A stretch of DNA of 41,443 nucleotides from Alphaproteobacteria bacterium (GTDB lineage Bacteria > Pseudomonadota > Alphaproteobacteria > CAAHEQ01 > UBA3637), in the NCBI GenBank assembly GCA_045614105.1, contig JAZLCF010000129.1:1-41443 (forward strand), written 5' to 3'. The notes beneath the pieces are model-generated. The model ran no database searches, had not been told where the DNA came from, and was given only the letters and a program-made list of their open reading frames with translations. The position numbers and the translations under genes are program-made. Positions 9,220-16,107 of the stretch are shown piece by piece (the stretch's first letter is position 1; every line of letters begins with the position of its first letter).

Positions 9220-9819
9220 TTATTCTTCCACAAAAACGCTTTTGCTTTGGTTGCACAGGGGGCAAACCCAATCATCGGGCAGTTCTTCAAATGGAATTTC
9301 CCCATCATAAAGGTAGCCACAAACGGTGCATCGCCAATGTTTTGGTCCATTAGAGATGGCTTTTCTTGCTTGATAGGTCGCATATAGTAAAGGTTCCTCC
9401 ATTGTGCCTGCTTCACCAGCTACAACATCACATAAAAATAAGTGATGTCCAGAAGTTTTGATTGTTTCTTTGACTTTTAGGTACATATAGGCAACTGCAT
9501 TTTTATAAATGGGTAAGTCATGATATAAAATATATTCTACGGTCCCCCATTTATCAGTATCGCGTGAGGAATTCATGCCAAATAGTTCTATAACATTCTC
9601 GGGCGTATGTGTGGGTAAAATGGACAGTGTTAGTTCGCCTGTTTTAACCACATTCTCCATTGTATGCGAGGCGTTGTTTAAAGACACAATCACTTGCTGT
9701 GGATCGGTTTCTACCACCATCACGGAATCTATACAGCTGCCAATCAAACGGCCTGTCTCCTCTTTTGCGCCCGTTAAATAAACTCCTTGTGAAATTTTAA
9801 ATAATGCTGCTAACTCCAT
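9220..9819 (-). CDS. Flavin reductase-like domain fused to C-terminal rubredoxin (high-molecular-weight rubredoxin type)
   Basis: The flavin-reductase-like core includes [12 protein letters not shown]. The C-terminal [35 protein letters not shown] is a complete rubredoxin with CxxC...CxxC. Start placed at 9819 (MELAAL...) behind SD AAGGAG. Confidence 0.8.
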
Positions 9820-9892
9820 ATAAGCTCCTTTTCCTACAAAAATAGCTCCACCAATTATAAAAATCAAGAGCATATCTTGGAATAAAAAAAGA

Positions 9893-9950: not shown

Positions 9951-10529
9951 ATGCAAAAAGCAGAATCAGTCAAAGAATTTGTGGAACGTGTTGATCAAGC
10001 GAAAAAGAAAAATCCCAAAGATTTATCTTCAGATCAAGATTTAACAATTGCCATCATGAATTTGATTTCCATTGAGGAGCATTTAATTTTTTCGGGGGCC
10101 AAAACAGGAAAGACTTCATTTTATGATATGGTACAAGATGTGCGCGAATTGCGCAAAAATTTAATGCTTAAAATCATTCCGAGTTATGAGGGGGAAGTGT
10201 GGTGTATTTCAAAGCACTTGCTGGCTACGGCAATGCGTTTGATGGAAGTGGGCACAAAGCAACAATCAATGGGGCATAAAGAGGAGGCCTATCAGTTGTT
10301 TAATCAAGCCTATGATTTATATTGTTTGTTCTGGGGGTTGAATATGAATTTGGTGGATGCAAAAGATATTCAATGGAAACCAGATGATTTAGAAGAAGTG
10401 AAAAGGGAAGTAGAAGCGTTAAAAGTTGCCGCTCCCATTAAAAAAGAAGTTGCTGTGCCAACGGATAATTCTTTGTTTGGAAAATTGAAATCTGTTGTGC
10501 GCAAAGCGGTAGATTGTTGCATTGAGTAG
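9951..10529 (+). CDS. Hypothetical protein (192 aa)
   Basis: SD AAAGGAG upstream. Predicted helical, ends ...VDCCIE. No family recognised. Confidence 0.6.
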   Translation: MQKAESVKEFVERVDQAKKKNPKDLSSDQDLTIAIMNLISIEEHLIFSGAKTGKTSFYDMVQDVRELRKNLMLKIIPSYEGEVWCISKHLLATAMRLMEVGTKQQSMGHKEEAYQLFNQAYDLYCLFWGLNMNLVDAKDIQWKPDDLEEVKREVEALKVAAPIKKEVAVPTDNSLFGKLKSVVRKAVDCCIE

Positions 10530-10536
10530 GAAGAAT

Positions 10537-10914
10537 ATGAAAAAAATTTTATTGTTTATTGTCGCATTATTTGTTTTTATTGCATGGGAGTTTGGATATA
10601 AAGAATCGGCTGTTTCTGCTGAATTGATTGCTCCAAATGAAATTTATGTCTTTACGCAAAAGACATGTTCGCATTGTCAGTCTGCGGAAAAATACTTAAA
10701 AGACAGGTATCCAGATTTAAAGGTACACATGAAAGATATTGCGGAGCCCAAAAATCGGATGATGTTTTTTGCGTGTGCTGCAAAGTTTAAATTGAATAAA
10801 TATACAGTGGGAACGCCTCTTTTTTGTATGGGAGATCATTATGTGTTGGGCTGGAGTTTTGAGGAACAACAACAGTTTGATACTTATGTGCAAGACTTTT
10901 TACCAAAAAACTAG
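10537..10914 (+). CDS. Membrane-anchored thioredoxin/glutaredoxin-fold protein (CSHC active site)
   Basis: N-terminal hydrophobic anchor MKKILLFIVALFVFIAW. Then IYVFTQKTCSHCQSAEKYL, the pattern of a beta strand followed by CxxC at a helix start. Start set at the ATG 10537 behind AGGAAG. Confidence 0.7.
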   Translation: MKKILLFIVALFVFIAWEFGYKESAVSAELIAPNEIYVFTQKTCSHCQSAEKYLKDRYPDLKVHMKDIAEPKNRMMFFACAAKFKLNKYTVGTPLFCMGDHYVLGWSFEEQQQFDTYVQDFLPKN

Positions 10915-10923
10915 GATTCTGTC

Positions 10924-11541
10924 ATGTCTTTGATTGTTCAAGGTTTCGTGAAGGCGTCGTTAAAAAATAATAATTACATTGTTGCGGATTCAGAAAAGAA
11001 AGAGGCAATCTTAATTGATTGTTCTTGTCCCGATGATGAGATAATAAATTGGTTGAATCAAAATGGATTAGTCCTGAAATATATTCTTTTGACACACGGG
11101 CATTTTGATCATGTGGCAGGCGTGAATTATTATCAAGATCAATGGGGCATAGACGCTTACTTATATGAAAAAGATTATTCTTTGTTGTCGTATTTTGAAA
11201 AATATGCTCAGTTGGCACGACAAAAAGTGGGGGAGCAACCTCAGCATATAAAAAACTTTGATTTGAACGCCACATTTCATGTTGGCAGATATCCGATTGA
11301 GATTATTCCAACGCCAGGACATACGCAAGGCGGGGTTTGTTATTTGATTGAAGGAAATTTGTTTTCGGGAGATACTTTATTTCACGGAACGTATGGACGG
11401 ACAGATTTAGATGAAAGTGATGAACAAGCCATGCAAAAAAGTCTACAAAATCTGTTTCAAAAACTGCCGGACGAAACACCTGTTTATCCTGGACACGGAG
11501 CCACCACTACGATAGGTCATGAACGGTCTCTTTATCAATAA
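10924..11541 (+). CDS. MBL-fold metallo-hydrolase (glyoxalase II-like)
   Basis: THGHFDHVAG (HxHxDH motif), GHTQGG, and a C-terminal PGHG. 205 aa. Confidence 0.85.
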   Translation: MSLIVQGFVKASLKNNNYIVADSEKKEAILIDCSCPDDEIINWLNQNGLVLKYILLTHGHFDHVAGVNYYQDQWGIDAYLYEKDYSLLSYFEKYAQLARQKVGEQPQHIKNFDLNATFHVGRYPIEIIPTPGHTQGGVCYLIEGNLFSGDTLFHGTYGRTDLDESDEQAMQKSLQNLFQKLPDETPVYPGHGATTTIGHERSLYQ

Positions 11542-11822
11542 GAACGACAATCATTTCCTTCGTTTTTCCAATTGGTAATAGTGTTGTCAGTGACTGTAAA
11601 TGTTGTTTTGCACCAGTATTTGTTTCCTTGAATTTTGACCTCTTTTTTGTAAGCTAAAAGTTCTGTTTTCTTATCCAGTTTATAGGTTTTATCAGGAATA
11701 CCCCAACCCAATACCAGCTCGGATTTTGGACGATTGAGCCAAGAGTTCAATTTCGCTTGATACTTGCTTTCGGTTGCACAGCCCAGTAAAAGGAAAGCGA
11801 AAAGTAAAATCAATTTTTTCAT
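11535..11822 (-). CDS. Small lipoprotein (hypothetical)
   Basis: MKKLILLFAFLLLGC contains a lipobox (LLGC). SD AAGGAGG lies upstream of the ATG at 11822. Confidence 0.7.
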   Translation of the reverse strand: MKKLILLFAFLLLGCATESKYQAKLNSWLNRPKSELVLGWGIPDKTYKLDKKTELLAYKKEVKIQGNKYWCKTTFTVTDNTITNWKNEGNDCRSY

Positions 11823-11912
11823 AAAACCTCCTTGTTGAATGCTCTGCATTATATCAGGTATCTTATTGCGGTGTCAAGTCCGAAAGTTGTTGTAAAAGGT
11901 AACGCAATAAAG

Positions 11913-13085
11913 CTAATGACTTTTGAGGCATAGCTGGCTGACATCTGTTAAGGAAAGTTCTCCCTTTTGTTCGGCTAAATTTTTGGCTTTTGGCATCAAA
12001 GTGGCGACTTGTTCCGCAGATAAAGAAATGCCGACTTTGGAACATAAAAGCTTCAACGCTGCTTTACCAGACTGGCTGGTAAAACCAAAATTTTCTCCAT
12101 CCGTGCGACCAATTAGTTCTGGGGGATAGGGAATATATTGCCCTTTTGCAAAAATTTTTGTTTTAGTGGCTCCATCTTGGTGAATGCCACTGCGGTGTAA
12201 AAAACAATCACGTCCCATTAAAGGTGCTTTTTCCCAGATTGGTACGCCAGATAATTGGGCGACAACCTGTGCGGTATGATAAAAATGAGCCATGTTTAAA
12301 GGGACATCTATTCCTGAATTATATAAAGCCAAAGCGGCTTCAAACATATTGGTATTGCCACATCGTTCGCCCAGTCCATTGATGGTTGTTTCTAATTGGG
12401 TGGCACCAGCAAAAAAACTTTCCACTGTGGTGGCGGTGGCCATACCTAAATCGTTGTGACAATGGACGGACAACTGGGCTTTATCGCCAATAGCAGCCTT
12501 TACTTGTTTGACCATTTCAACGAAAAACATCGGATGTGTGTGTTCTACTGTATTTGGTAGGTTGATTACTGTCACGCCGGTTTGAACGATTTGATCTAGT
12601 ACTTTAATGACGTCCGTTAAATTTTCTTTGCAATCCCCGAAATGCTCCACGGAAAATTCAATTTGTCCGTTTGGCGGTAATAAAAACTGGGCTTGTTTGG
12701 TGGCTTGAATTGCCATCTCAGTCACTTCATTTAGGCTTTTATGTAAAATGTAGTGTAAGCCCATAGCATTTAAAGGGACAAAAATGTGCATGCGTGGATT
12801 TTGTGCACCCTGTAAGGCTTGTGCAGCCAACATAACATCTTCTGGGATGGCACGAGCTAAGACACTGAGCGTGACATCTTTGGGGGCATGTTGGACAAGC
12901 AAACGACAAGCATCAAAATCCATTTGGCTAGAAGCTGGAAAGCCAATTTCAATCGCCTTAATACCTAAAGCCAACAACTCTTTGAAAATCACCAGTTTTT
13001 CTTGAGGATTCCAAGGATGCTTTAAAGATTGATTCCCATCGCGCAGTGTGGTGTCATAAAACACAGGCTGAGATGAAATGGACAT
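11913..13085 (-). CDS. 2-isopropylmalate synthase / homocitrate synthase family protein (HMGL-like catalytic domain only, 390 aa)
   Basis: FYDTTLRDGNQS, IEIGFPASSQMDFD and HCHNDLGMATA are DRE-TIM aldolase motifs of the LeuA/NifV/CimA family. There is no room for the roughly 150-aa LeuA C-terminal regulatory domain. SD AAGGAG upstream. Preceded by a Leu-leader attenuator. Confidence 0.8.
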   Translation of the reverse strand: MSISSQPVFYDTTLRDGNQSLKHPWNPQEKLVIFKELLALGIKAIEIGFPASSQMDFDACRLLVQHAPKDVTLSVLARAIPEDVMLAAQALQGAQNPRMHIFVPLNAMGLHYILHKSLNEVTEMAIQATKQAQFLLPPNGQIEFSVEHFGDCKENLTDVIKVLDQIVQTGVTVINLPNTVEHTHPMFFVEMVKQVKAAIGDKAQLSVHCHNDLGMATATTVESFFAGATQLETTINGLGERCGNTNMFEAALALYNSGIDVPLNMAHFYHTAQVVAQLSGVPIWEKAPLMGRDCFLHRSGIHQDGATKTKIFAKGQYIPYPPELIGRTDGENFGFTSQSGKAALKLLCSKVGISLSAEQVATLMPKAKNLAEQKGELSLTDVSQLCLKSH

Positions 13086-13102
13086 TTTTGACTCCTTCTA
13101 TT

Positions 13103-13130
13103 AAAAAAAGCACCCTTCCTAAAAGGGCGC
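13103..13130 (-). terminator. Attenuator terminator in the leader of the LeuA-family gene
   Basis: The minus strand reads GCGCCCTT-TTAGG-AAGGGTGC (8-bp stem, one G:U) followed by TTTTTTT. It ends 17 nt before the structural-gene ATG. Confidence 0.75.
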
Positions 13131-13163
13131 CGGATTCTTGTATTTTTAAGAAAAACATACCTT

Positions 13164-13226
13164 TTAGGAAATGGCTTCGCCTCCGCACAACAACAATAAT
13201 AAAGCTAATAGTATGTCTTTTTTCAT
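13164..13226 (-). CDS. Leucine-rich leader peptide MKKDILLALLLLLCGGEAIS (20 aa)
   Basis: ATG AAA AAA GAC ATA CTA TTA GCT TTA TTA TTG TTG TTG TGC GGA GGC GAA GCC ATT TCC TAA. Seven of eight consecutive codons are Leu. The stop codon is embedded in the 5' arm of an 11-bp antiterminator helix. Confidence 0.55.
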   Translation of the reverse strand: MKKDILLALLLLLCGGEAIS

Positions 13227-13233
13227 AAGATGA

Positions 13234-13262
13234 ATGTTAGCACATTTAATAATCAATGTCAA
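13234..13262 (-). promoter_or_regulatory. Candidate promoter TTGACA-N17-TAACAT for the leader transcript
   Basis: On the minus strand, -35 is at 13262->13257 and -10 at 13239->13234. The leader ATG starts 7 nt after the -10 and has no SD. Confidence 0.4.
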
Positions 13263-13346
13263 TATCTTTTTAAAATCAAAAGTGGGCCAAGACTTGACCT
13301 GCTTTGTTTTATATGATATCATTGTTGAAAATGAAGGGATAGTGAT

Positions 13347-13883
13347 ATGTCAGAAACGATTTTGTATGACAATACGTTGTCAGTTGGTAATCATGTTTTT
13401 CGTGGCCCCGTTTTGGAGGTTCCTGAGGCACAAGAGGCGCGTCCAACGGCCAAACAGATTTCAAAGTTATGGGATACTGCGCGTGTTTTGGGCGAGGTTG
13501 GTTGGGCTTCACATGTCCTGTATGTGGGAGAATGGTTGGCAAGTGTCAGAATGCCGCAAAAGGAAGAGAAAGCTTGTCGGCGAGAGCTTGAAAAATATTT
13601 TAGGAGATACTGTCCAAATATCCGGCGAGATGTGACGAATATGGAACTGCATGCTGCAATTTCTCACCAGCTGGAACAATATAAACCACGCTTTTCTAAA
13701 AGAGATTTGCAGGCTTTGTTTTTGGCTTATCAACAATGGCAAAAATTGGAGCCTCGTACTTTGAAGCAACAGCGTGAGAAGGCATGGGTGGGCTATGGAT
13801 TGGCGACGATGATGGCCTCCAGATATTATAAAGCTGCTTTTCCCGAAAAGGATCCACTGGTCAAAAGAATCTATGCGCGATAA
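13347..13883 (+). CDS. Hypothetical protein (178 aa)
   Basis: A candidate promoter TTGACC-N17-TATCAT (13294-13322) and a weak SD GAAGGGA lie upstream. No motif recognised. It overlaps alternative ORFs on both strands, which I consider less likely. Confidence 0.5.
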   Translation: MSETILYDNTLSVGNHVFRGPVLEVPEAQEARPTAKQISKLWDTARVLGEVGWASHVLYVGEWLASVRMPQKEEKACRRELEKYFRRYCPNIRRDVTNMELHAAISHQLEQYKPRFSKRDLQALFLAYQQWQKLEPRTLKQQREKAWVGYGLATMMASRYYKAAFPEKDPLVKRIYAR

Positions 13884-14141
13884 AAGCCTTCTATAACCGA
13901 AATTGTGATTGAAAAAGTCGCAAAATGATTGATTTGTTGCGACCTGTGAAGACACTAAAAACGAGATATATGGTCGTATCCCGTTTTGTTGATTTCCTAT
14001 GAAGGTATGTCTTGAGGTACTTAAAGTGTACGTTTCCCGTATTTGTGTGGATCGTATTTAAGAAAAGCAATCTTTTTTTGAAAGACTTGCAATTATTTTT
14101 GAAATTGGCTACACTGAACATAATAAAGGAAAGGATAAGCA

Positions 14142-14825
14142 ATGACAGAAGATTTGATTTTGAAAACAAAATTGCGTCACATCAACCCCAGAACCGCCAA
14201 TCAAAGTGCATTTGTGGAGGCAATGAATACTCATGATATGACTTTTGGTTTGGGGCCGGCTGGTACTGGTAAGACTTTTTTGGCAGTGGCTAAAGCGGTG
14301 GCGGATATGGAAACCAATAAAGTGGATAAGATTATCTTGACCCGTCCTGCCGTAGAAGCGGGTGAAAACTTGGGCTTTTTACCAGGTGATTTAAAGGAAA
14401 AAATTGATCCGTATTTGCGTCCGCTTTACGATGCACTCTATGAGATGATGCCACGTGATATTGTGGATAAAAAAATTGAAAATGGCGAAATTGAAATTGC
14501 TCCGCTGGCTTATATGCGTGGGCGGACTTTGTCTCATGCGGTGGTGATTTTGGATGAAGCACAAAACACAACGCCGATGCAAATGAAAATGTTTTTGACG
14601 CGCTTGGGTGAAGGATCTAAGATGGTCATCAATGGTGACTTGACGCAAACGGATCTGCCCAGAGGCATGGAATCAGGTTTAAAAGATGCTGAGCGAATTT
14701 TAAAGGGCGTGAAAGAAATTGCCTTTGTGTACTTTGATGAAAGAGATGTGGTGCGCCATGGATTGGTGTCCAAGATTGTGAACGCTTATGCAAAGGATAA
14801 GGAAAAGACCAATAATGGAAATTGA
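14142..14825 (+). CDS. phoH: PhoH-family ATPase (YbeZ-like)
   Basis: Walker [14 protein letters not shown], then [19 protein letters not shown], then Walker [12 protein letters not shown]. Sits in the conserved phoH-ybeY-corC order. Confidence 0.9.
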
Positions 14826-15249
14826 TATACTGGTTCAGGATAAACGTTTTTACCTGTTCATCCCATTTGTAAAAAATTTTTGTCGACGTGTCCTTGAAAA
14901 TGCGTGGGAAAAAGACACAAGCGCAGTTGTTTCTGTTGTCTTAGCAAAGGATGATTTTGTGCGTGATTTGAACAGGCAATATCGTGGCAAAGATTGTCCG
15001 ACAAATGTTCTGTCCTTTGAAAATGAGGGATTAGCGGGAGATATTGTAGTGGCCTATGGTGTGACGCGAGATGAGGCAAAGGCTCAGGGCAAAACTTTTG
15101 CAGCGCATTTAGCGCATTTGTTGACGCATGGGGCTTTACATTTGCAAGGATACGACCATCTGAATGATAAAGACGCGGACAAGATGGAAAGGTTGGAAAT
15201 AAAACTGATGGCAAAAATGGGTTATCAAAATCCATACAAAGGAGTATAA
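14815..15249 (+). CDS. ybeY: Endoribonuclease YbeY (rRNA maturation)
   Basis: The [11 protein letters not shown] zinc motif. Start set at 14815, overlapping the phoH stop by 11 nt. Confidence 0.9.
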
Positions 15250-16107
15250 ATGTTTGGAAAAATAAAAGAATTTTTTATAAAGCATCCCGAAGAGGAAGAA
15301 GCCATAGAAACTGTGGAAGAAATTATGGATGAACGCGAAGAGCGTGGAGATGATGTGTTGGTGGATGATGATGAAATGTTGCTGCTGAAAAACGTGTTCA
15401 AATTGCGTGACAAGCGAGCAGCAGATATTGCTATTCCGCGAGCGCAAATTGTGGCGATCCCAATCAATGCGACGCCGGCCGAGTTGAAAAAAGTTGTGTT
15501 AAATGACAAATACACGCGGATGCCTGTGTATGAAAAAACGTTGGATAATGTGGTGGGTGTGTTGCATACTAAGGATTTATTGGGAGCTGTTTTGGAGAAA
15601 AAGTCTATTGATGTCAAGCGGTTGATGAATGTCCATGTCTTTTTTGCAGCGCCCTCTATGCGGGGGTTGGATTTGTTGCGAGAAATGCAGGCCAAGGGGA
15701 TGCAGCTGGCGGTCATTGTGGACGAGTTTGGAGGGACACAAGGATTGGTGACTTTGGAAGATTTGTTGGAGGAAATTGTGGGGGAAATTGAGGACGAACA
15801 CGATATGTTGGATACGCCCCCCGAGTTGAAGCAAATTTCTCCGCGTATTATTGAATCTGATGCTCGGGTGGAGTTGGTCAAGCTGTGTGGTATGGTGGGC
15901 GATTTTTTAACGCCTGCGGATAAAGAGGCTGAATTGGATACGATTGGGGGGCTTATTTTCCATATAACGGGTCGCTTGCCTTATCGGGGAGAAATTGTCA
16001 CACACGCCAGTGGCTTGAAGTTTCAGGTGTTGGATGTGGATGCACGTCGGATTAAAAAAGTAAAAATTACATGTTTTGAACCCTTGAAAAAAAAGAAAAA
16101 CAAGTAA
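15250..16107 (+). CDS. corC: CBS-pair + CorC/HlyC domain protein (CorC/TlyC/YbeX family)
   Basis: A tandem CBS region (IPRAQIVAI..., VGVLHTKDLL, AVIVDEFGGTQGLVTLEDLLEEIVGEIEDE) followed by a transporter-associated C-terminal domain. Starts 1 nt after the ybeY stop. Confidence 0.85.
   Translation: MFGKIKEFFIKHPEEEEAIETVEEIMDEREERGDDVLVDDDEMLLLKNVFKLRDKRAADIAIPRAQIVAIPINATPAELKKVVLNDKYTRMPVYEKTLDNVVGVLHTKDLLGAVLEKKSIDVKRLMNVHVFFAAPSMRGLDLLREMQAKGMQLAVIVDEFGGTQGLVTLEDLLEEIVGEIEDEHDMLDTPPELKQISPRIIESDARVELVKLCGMVGDFLTPADKEAELDTIGGLIFHITGRLPYRGEIVTHASGLKFQVLDVDARRIKKVKITCFEPLKKKKNK

Follow-up and report, generated by a model that had tools for sequence, protein, structure and literature searches.

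The stretch analyzed here (the window) comprises 41,443 nucleotides of contig JAZLCF010000129.1, part of an alphaproteobacterial metagenome-assembled genome (MAG) of 0.99 Mb that is 77% complete. Its minus strand carries a gene for a LeuA-like protein of 390 aa, which resembles the LeuA2 type of 2-isopropylmalate synthase (IPMS), and, in front of this gene, a leader with a promoter, a short open reading frame (ORF) rich in leucine codons, and RNA segments that can pair as an antiterminator or as an intrinsic terminator. We read the minus strand of positions 13500-11700 and checked each position by script (Table 1). The leader elements given in a preliminary description of the window, namely the promoter, a 20-aa ORF with seven Leu in eight codons, a perfect complementarity of 11 bp with the stop codon inside segment 2, and a terminator with its U7 tract, were all recovered to the base. 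As argued below, this leader is very probably a complete four-segment ribosome-mediated leucine attenuator, as judged from its sequence and its conservation.

Table 1. Elements of the leader and of the gene that follows it, in window coordinates (SD, Shine-Dalgarno sequence).
Feature	Position	Strand	Remarks
-35 hexamer TTGACA of the leader promoter	13257..13262	-	TTGAC[AT] in 27/27 related leaders
-10 hexamer TAACAT	13234..13239	-	17-nt spacer from the -35 hexamer; leader ATG 7 nt further on
Leader ORF, 20 codons + UAA, peptide MKKDILLALLLLLCGGEAIS	13164..13226	-	ATG at 13226; no SD
Regulatory codon run, codons 6-13: CUA UUA GCU UUA UUA UUG UUG UUG	13188..13211	-	7 Leu
Segment 1, GGAGGC, protector helix 5' strand	13179..13184	-	sequesters part of segment 2
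Segment 2, antiterminator 5' strand, UUUCCUAAAAGG	13160..13171	-	UUCCUAAAAGG at 13170-13160
UAA stop codon of the leader ORF	13166-13164	-	inside segment 2
Segment 3, CCUUUUAGGAA	13116..13126	-	partner of segment 2 (antiterminator) or segment 4 (terminator)
Intrinsic terminator, segments 3 + 4, GGCGCCCUUUUAGGAAGGGUGC + U7	13103..13131	-	GCGCCCUUUUAGGAAGGGUGC + U7 at 13130-13103
SD AAGGAG of the LeuA-like gene	13092..13097	-	3' of the U tract, not sequestered; 6 nt before the 390-aa ORF
LeuA2-type 2-isopropylmalate-synthase-like gene, 390 aa	11913..13085	-	catalytic TIM barrel + accessory subdomains, no regulatory domain

The UUCCUAAAAGG stretch of segment 2 is the exact reverse complement of segment 3, and the antiterminator duplex of the two comprises 11 perfect base pairs with an energy of -14.7 kcal/mol. 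The terminator is a 10-bp hairpin of -14.0 kcal/mol followed by U7, and it ends 17 nt before the ATG of the gene. Segment 3 makes up the 5' arm of the terminator together with its loop, so that the antiterminator and the terminator are mutually exclusive. In the folding of 13086-13232, which the preliminary description had suggested as a check, the minimum-energy fold of the region contains the antiterminator. The folding z-score of the whole leader (-0.86) is unremarkable, as expected for an RNA built for two competing folds. The last Leu codon lies seven codons 5' of the stop codon. UUR codons prevail in the Leu run, as they do in the genome's own genes, and five tRNA-Leu genes are present in the genome.

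Close relatives of the gene were found by a protein homology search, a search for the encoding contigs and a genome search. A scan of genome contigs with the single protein gave no relatives, and a scan with an alignment gave only distant LeuA genes (at most 55% identity) and no close ones. The protein search returned about 15 short relatives (385-392 aa, 61-83% identity), followed by forms of about 500 aa that carry a regulatory domain, from Alphaproteobacteria MAGs; we refer to these as short and long forms. The loci retrieved (nine metagenome short-form loci, three long-form loci and 17 genomes of the order to which the window belongs) gave 27 distinct leaders, two of the long-form loci being duplicates of genome sequences.

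All 27 leaders share the same architecture, consisting of the promoter, the Leu-run ORF, segments 1 to 4, a U run, the SD and the gene. In the consensus, the promoter (TTGAC[AT], a 17-nt spacer in the 25 leaders measured, and a TAnnnN -10 box) is followed by the ORF, which has 18-23 codons in the relatives and a Leu run in each of them, by the motif YUCCURARRGG at the stop codon, a linker of 19-38 nt, the invariant core CCCUUUUAGGA of segment 3, a GGG[UC]G arm and at least six U. The core is unchanged in 27/27 leaders, which span four genera; this invariance is meaningful, because between the same lineages the gene has reached saturation at its synonymous sites (1-1.9 synonymous substitutions per site, dS). 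Among the 80 genomes of the order, the exact pattern of segments 2-3-4 occurs once per genome in all 18 carriers of the gene and in none of the 62 non-carriers, and the reversed-pattern controls gave no occurrence. Both the attenuation logic put forward in the preliminary description and the conservation it called for were thus borne out: every related leader examined (27/27) has the Leu run, the terminator, and the inverted-repeat pairing whose antiterminator strand lies at the stop codon, even where the reading frame has changed.

This change of frame separates the two forms. The leader peptides of the short forms (MKKNILRILLLLRGGESVS and similar) carry added Ile codons (ILRILLIL), and the stop codon lies within UCCUAA. 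The long forms (peptides MNNKKLHLLLCLLGNNNHLLRG, MKNVTLLLLLNLLLGHEVHFLRG and similar) have UCCUAARAGG in another frame (CUC CUA AGA GGG UAG, read as L-K/R-G with the stop just after), and the stretch still pairs with CCCUUUUAGGA, which indicates that the RNA, rather than the peptide, is under constraint. Segment 2 occurs in nine variants; all of them are A/G changes opposite U, including a UAA to UGA change of the stop codon, and all keep the pairing with segment 3. In the terminator stem, three of the four variable pairs covary (A-U, G-C, G.U), and the 27 leaders contain no non-canonical pair. Stem pairs were tallied by script, since the MAFFT alignment misplaced the 3' arm of the terminator owing to a 1-nt indel. 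The sequence elements, the mutual exclusivity of the two folds, the geometry of the leader, its conservation and its covariation are established.

The same data bear on a different type of control, in which the leader would respond without a ribosome, through a T-box (tRNA), a riboswitch or an RNA-binding protein, or in which its RNA or peptide would act mainly in trans, like rnTrpL and peTrpL of Sinorhizobium. Products of an attenuator do act in trans in that other alphaproteobacterium (PMC6614838, PMC7298713), and leader peptides of the same clade share their C-terminal half (RGGESVS; GNNNHLLRG). However, the conserved tail maps to segments 1 and 2 and is read in frames that differ between the clades, so that RNA constraints explain it. 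By exact pattern search, the RNA motif of segments 2-3-4 is found nowhere else in the genomes of the order, which gives no support for trans targets, although such targets may exist. An Rfam cmscan of window positions 10000-16000 at E <= 1 gave no match to a leader family, a T-box or RF00512, and returned only a weak, unrelated hit to Ysr251; the T-box was rejected for this reason. We regard control of this type as very unlikely.

Directly 3' of the Leu run lies segment 1, which reads GGAGGCG in the short forms and UURGGA in the long forms. According to the folding, its pairing partner is UUUCC/UCCUAA in segment 2, the pairings among the relatives being GGAGGCG with CGUUUCC, or UURGGA with UCCUAA. 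This 1:2 helix is present in all leaders, with energies of -4.1 to -10.4 kcal/mol, and is weak in the window (-4.7 kcal/mol); the 2:3 antiterminator duplexes range from -12.9 to -21.2 kcal/mol and the 3:4 terminators from -11.6 to -18.7 kcal/mol. The 1:2 helix would serve as a protector and possibly also as a pause helix, and its segment 1 would be covered by a ribosome halted at the last of the Leu codons. Because it exists, the leader has four segments instead of three; the antiterminator and the terminator of the preliminary description stand, and its three-segment scheme does not.

The promoter arrangement that the preliminary description had singled out, with TTGACA-N17-TAACAT only 7 nt before a leader ATG without an SD, is a general feature of these leaders. 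In all 27 leaders, 6-8 nt separate the -10 box from the ATG. Of the 25 that were measured, 23 have exactly 7 nt; the distance is 6 nt in two leaders and 8 nt in L011 and L013, which have identical sequences, and it was judged by eye to be 7 nt in L127 and L128. A gap of this size leaves no room for an SD, and none is present. Most leaders have a pyrimidine immediately 5' of the ATG, in keeping with transcription that starts at the A of the AUG. The leader ORF is thus probably translated from a 5'-terminal AUG. Leaderless leader peptides have been described for the ilvB and leu leaders of Corynebacterium (PMC5784534) and for mycobacteria (bioRxiv 10.1101/834739). Across the genome of the window, strong promoters (TTGACW-N17-TAnnnT) in front of ORFs of at least 60 aa mostly lie 19-55 nt from the ATG, and a small number lie only 4-7 nt from it; leaderless transcripts may thus occur for a few ordinary genes of this genome as well.

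The genome contains 30 short ORFs with the same promoter-to-ATG geometry, of which only the leader ORF combines an amino-acid run with a strong terminator, and no other attenuator of this geometry was found in the genome. Perfect 11-nt inverted repeats within 60 nt number five in the 41-kb window, versus 0.75 in shuffled sequences. Taken together, the two counts exclude chance as the origin of the arrangement. A further reading would take the small ORF as the N-terminal remnant of a lipoprotein or signal peptide (MKK...LLLLLCGG, lipobox-like), the hairpin as an insulating terminator and the complementarity as incidental. Indeed, the peptide resembles a signal peptide, and the next downstream gene (11849-11535) encodes a lipoprotein-like N-terminus, MKKLILLFAFLLLGC. 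Four observations led us to reject this reading, to which we assign next to no probability: the Cys is not conserved, being Arg or Gly in the relatives; the ORF always ends at 18-23 codons, inside segment 2 or adjoining it; divergent transcription of the upstream gene leaves the hairpin no transcript to insulate against; and the LeuA-type gene and the unit of promoter, leader and terminator are found together one-to-one.

We assign this leader, with high confidence, to the classical ribosome-mediated transcription attenuators; it would sense charged tRNA-Leu and gate a monocistronic LeuA2-type IPMS gene. We infer the leucine response, the transcription start site and, as discussed below, the substrate of the enzyme. 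The near-consensus promoter would fire constitutively, and the transcript, as a leaderless mRNA, would probably start at the A of the leader AUG and be translated from there. With ample Leu-tRNA, the ribosome would reach the UAA in segment 2 and mask this segment, allowing the 3:4 terminator to form and transcription to stop at U7. When Leu-tRNA is scarce, the ribosome would stall on the run of seven Leu codons, covering segment 1 and leaving segment 2 free; the latter could then pair with segment 3 before segment 4 is made, so that no terminator would form and transcription would read through into the gene. If the leader is not translated at all, the 1:2 helix, which is weak in the window and stronger in its relatives, would favor termination.

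The proposed switch was modeled with a ribosome placed on the leader codons, either at full-length equilibrium or on nascent RNA ending at segment 3. At full-length equilibrium, the terminator of the window has a probability of 0.81 in the free RNA, rising to 1.00 once the ribosome is at the stop codon; a stall of the ribosome at Leu codons 6-12 gives the antiterminator a probability of 0.86-0.97. Many long forms switch with ribosome position at equilibrium in the same way. In the nascent RNA, a 30-nt ribosome mask on any codon of the main Leu run gives a probability of the 2:3 duplex of 0.73-1.0 in 27/27 leaders, and in two leaders isolated Leu codons near segment 2 give lower values.

Several points weigh against the proposed attenuator. 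The zero probability of the antiterminator with the ribosome at the stop codon is a consequence of the mask and not an independent test. In most short-form relatives, the segment 2 of which has one extra, bulged A, the full-length equilibrium favors the terminator in every ribosome state, and the attenuation model works only kinetically for them. The E. coli trp attenuator is likewise kinetic. The untranslated nascent RNA of the window, with its weak 1:2 helix of -4.7 kcal/mol, would form the antiterminator, and for this reason the window's copy of the attenuator may be leaky. The antiterminator is supported by one-sided G.U changes and shows no double compensatory changes, which is due to the invariance of segment 3. 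Finally, we know of no attenuator that governs an enzyme from whose product the cell itself could not make leucine.

The preliminary description had left the LeuA-like protein between IPMS, citramalate synthase and homocitrate synthase, and the profile hidden Markov models favor the first. The best NCBIfam model is NF042434 (IPMS LeuA2), matched over positions 4-374 of 374 with 491.8 bits, 8 bits below its cut-off of 500; the next-best models reach at most 286 bits, and other LeuA models as well as CimA (citramalate) and NifV (homocitrate) score far lower. In Pfam, the HMGL-like domain PF00682 and the post-catalytic domains PF22617 and PF22615 are present, and the search of the 390-aa protein gave no LeuA_dimer (PF08502) regulatory domain. 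The long-form relatives (e.g. one of 502 aa) carry this Leu-binding domain. The closest solved structure is the IPMS of Leptospira biflexa (4OV4, E = 1e-104), aligned from residues 10-387 of the protein to 29-406 of the 414-residue chain. The top fold matches of an AlphaFold 2 model (predicted local distance difference test score, pLDDT, 81) are 4OV9 and 4OV4 over 384 columns, and the third is a plant methylthioalkylmalate (MAM) synthase. The metal and substrate motifs RDG, HxHNDLG and NLPNTVE are kept, and R15, D16, H208, H210, N178 and T179 are invariant in the alignment. The protein is most likely an active, feedback-insensitive IPMS, and its ~55% identity to the crystallized enzyme suggests 2-oxoisovalerate and acetyl-CoA as its substrates.

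The window protein departs from 18 aligned relatives at five positions (K133Q, A169T, R182H, V250A and L312F, the last from 17 of the 18). One of these changes, R182H, adjoins the NTVE substrate motif. The five differences count against the preferred reading of the locus. To our knowledge, none of the five positions is a catalytic residue. The substitutions could represent real divergence, a weakened enzyme or noise in the MAG consensus.

The order of the window consists of one family with 80 species genomes of 0.7-2.0 Mb, 54 of them of high quality. A LeuA-type gene is present in 18 of the 80 genomes, and in two of the 21 from the window's genus. No matches to the leuB and leuC models were found in any of the 80 genomes at E <= 1e-3, which implies that relatives from the isocitrate-dehydrogenase and aconitase families are absent as well; leuD was found in none of five genomes of the genus, and ilvC, ilvD and the IlvE family (class IV aminotransferase) in none of ten genomes, i.e. 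these five and five near-complete long-form carriers. Positive controls for the pathway searches matched in 13-14 of 14 genomes, those of the leuB and leuC searches in all 14. No Leu/Val dehydrogenase was found in the carriers, and a search for class I/II pyridoxal-phosphate (PLP) enzymes (aminotransferases) gave weak matches only, none of which track the gene. In a class-wide search of 400 genomes, the LeuA2 type was found only in the window's own genome; the gene is therefore rare in the class. The absence of leuBCD near the gene, remarked on in the preliminary description, thus extends to an orphan status at the level of the order.

The gene forms a monocistronic cassette with its leader, and the downstream neighbors vary among lineages. 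All copies are intact, except for one that is cut by a contig end. In a maximum-likelihood tree, the sequences of the order form one clade (support 100/99), apart from those of Fibrobacterota and other LeuA2-type sequences, and all short forms form one clade within it (100/100), which has a long stem branch and is sister to two long forms of another genus. Since the short forms constitute a single clade, the regulatory domain was lost once, on this long branch. The lack of the C-terminal Leu-feedback domain reported in the preliminary description is therefore specific to the window's clade. Its suggestion that attenuation may be the only Leu control of the gene holds for this clade; elsewhere it does not, as most orphan relatives keep the Leu-binding domain. 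The ratio of nonsynonymous to synonymous substitution rates (dN/dS) is 0.03-0.2 in short and long forms and ~0.07 for the window gene versus its relatives. We thus judge the orphan state to be old and to have been preserved by selection; most lineages possess the allosteric Leu domain as well as the attenuator.

These data also speak to the possibility that the gene and its leader are a decaying, functionless relic of a lost leucine pathway. Such an origin would agree with the lack of the rest of the pathway across the order, with the patchy distribution of the gene and with the five unusual substitutions of the window's copy. It is opposed by the intact copies, by the low dN/dS despite saturated dS, by the core of the leader RNA that is invariant across four genera, and by the single clade of the order's sequences, which fits long vertical retention. 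We rejected the relic on account of the selection on the gene, its intact copies and the invariant leader core, and consider it highly improbable.

In its genome sizes, its single family and its origin from animal-gut samples, the order appears to correspond to Rs-D84, which includes the genus Enterousia. Members of Rs-D84 are gut Alphaproteobacteria with genomes of ~1 Mb or less that are devoid of amino-acid, nucleotide and lipid biosynthesis and of the tricarboxylic acid (TCA) cycle, and they are probably obligate symbionts or parasites of other cells (PMC12306168). The LeuA-like gene is not mentioned in that study, and our literature search found no attenuated LeuA in genomes without the leucine pathway.

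Since the lineage is without leuBCD, the product of the predicted IPMS is one that, on the genomic evidence, cannot be processed in the same cell. One way to account for this would be that the switch operates as described and the enzyme is not a leucine IPMS, acting instead on another 2-oxo acid (e.g. on pyruvate, giving citramalate) or in a non-biosynthetic role. No route to 2-oxoisovalerate was found, given the absence of ilvC, ilvD and the class IV aminotransferase in the ten genomes, the lack of a Leu/Val dehydrogenase in the carriers and the weakness of the class I/II PLP-enzyme matches. The NF042434 score lies slightly below the cut-off, the loss of the regulatory domain is followed by a long stem branch in the short-form clade, and Ile codons were added in the short-form leaders. 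The third-best fold match, MAM synthase, is an IPMS derivative without the regulatory domain. MAM synthase is a neofunctionalized enzyme. Opposed to these points are the closest characterized relative, a true IPMS crystallized with ketoisovalerate and isopropylmalate (4OV4/4OV9), the far lower scores of the citramalate and homocitrate synthase models, the use of Leu as the common signal in 27/27 leaders, and the LeuA allosteric domain that is kept in the long forms. We consider a different substrate or role possible but doubtful, and IPMS remains the preferred assignment.

For an IPMS under leucine control, we suggest, at low confidence, that the physiological role probably involves a partner organism. 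It can be speculated that at low Leu-tRNA the cell makes 2-isopropylmalate (or a related alkylmalate) and passes it to a host or neighbor, whose LeuCD, LeuB and IlvE would finish leucine, bypassing the partner's own feedback-inhibited first step, or else that non-homologous replacements of LeuCD and LeuB are hidden in these genomes; on present evidence, such scenarios are rather unlikely. The leading options for the role are thus an IPMS with a partner-completed product, another 2-oxo-acid specificity, or an unrecognized continuation of the pathway within the cell.

Around the cassette, the downstream gene of the window (11535-11890, minus strand) encodes a 104-aa lipoprotein-like product (MKKLILLFAFLLLGCATESK...) with no Pfam match. 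This gene has its own promoter, TTGACA-N17-TATAAT, in the 63-nt gap after the stop codon of the LeuA-like gene, and is therefore not part of the attenuated transcript. Further along the minus strand (9220-9873), a fusion of a flavin-reductase domain with a C-terminal rubredoxin is encoded, and in loci L009-L011 the LeuA-like gene is followed immediately by a rubrerythrin gene; genes for oxidative stress of a type common in anaerobes thus recur near the cassette. On the other side, a conserved gene of 174-180 aa without a Pfam match (13347-13883 on the plus strand of the window, with counterparts in L003-L009) is divergent from the leader promoter in the short-form loci of the window type, and it adjoins phoH-ybeY-corC.

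The switch itself is ordinary: its mechanism belongs to a known class, and the RNA family is an uncatalogued one without an Rfam match. As a leucine attenuator family with a conserved leaderless geometry, it is suited for RNA-family catalogues, and it probably represents leaderless translation of a leader peptide in bacteria other than Actinobacteria. The target gene matters more than the switch. The order keeps one enzyme of the leucine pathway together with one or two Leu-sensing layers, and the searches for other genes of this pathway found none. This retention is hard to explain by biosynthesis within the cell, and it leads to a testable hypothesis of metabolite hand-off between bacteria with reduced genomes and their partners. 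It also calls for caution in metabolic reconstructions, in which such genes should not be scored as partial pathways or relics.

Leucine leader-peptide attenuators are classical. The leader of the window resembles the enterobacterial leu leader (leuL, RF00512) as well as trpL, hisL and pheL in having an ORF with cognate codons, four segments and a U tract before the first structural gene. Unlike leuL, with which it shares no sequence or covariance-model similarity, it has a leader ORF without an SD that starts ~7 nt after the -10 box, its stop codon lies inside the antiterminator strand, and it controls a single orphan gene instead of leuABCD.

Leader peptides that start at a 5'-terminal AUG are known from Corynebacterium (PMC5784534) and from the mycobacterial poly-Cys upstream ORF attenuators (bioRxiv 10.1101/834739); for the window this start is suggested by the geometry. 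Actinobacteria, which are another phylum, also possess a leuA-specific Leu leader, and the leu leader peptide of C. diphtheriae, MNRANLLLLRRGGSQA, resembles the short-form peptides (...LLLLRGGESVS, consensus ...ILLLLRGGESVS) (PMC5784534). In both, the Leu run is followed by Arg-Gly-Gly codons, which amount to a G-rich RNA stretch; the likeness may reflect convergence from the need for a G-rich pairing segment. The actinobacterial LEU element differs in that it has been described as a pseudoknot pairing with the SD of leuA (PMC1262725), whereas the window has a clear intrinsic terminator. Within Alphaproteobacteria, trpL-trpE(G) of Sinorhizobium meliloti (PMC6614838) is likewise an attenuator in front of a single first-step gene that lies apart from its pathway. 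That leader, however, senses Trp, has documented trans roles, and has the rest of its pathway elsewhere in the genome, whereas the switch of the window responds to Leu according to our model.

As for the target gene, the L. biflexa IPMS (4OV4/4OV9) and the NF042434 family are its best matches in sequence and fold over the full 390 residues. Unlike these enzymes, the window protein ends after the accessory subdomains and occurs in a genome without leuBCD or ilv genes. The MAM synthase of Brassica (6E1J) and the IPMS isoforms of banana (PMC12994207) have likewise lost the C-terminal Leu-binding domain, which removes feedback inhibition; unlike these plant enzymes, the truncated enzyme of the window keeps a predicted transcriptional sensor of leucine. 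Finally, the LeuA2-type genes of three Fibrobacterota loci (L031, L033 and L035) are also preceded by Leu-run mini-ORFs (MKSAFVQNNLSLLLLVLTG, MNKILNLRLINLLGCASGARAGF and MRKTLNLLLLLSIATEARF), located ~80-230 nt upstream, and by GC-rich terminators. Their RNA sequences are unrelated to that of the window, and those organisms are assumed to have the full pathway. Leucine attenuation may thus be widespread for this LeuA subfamily.

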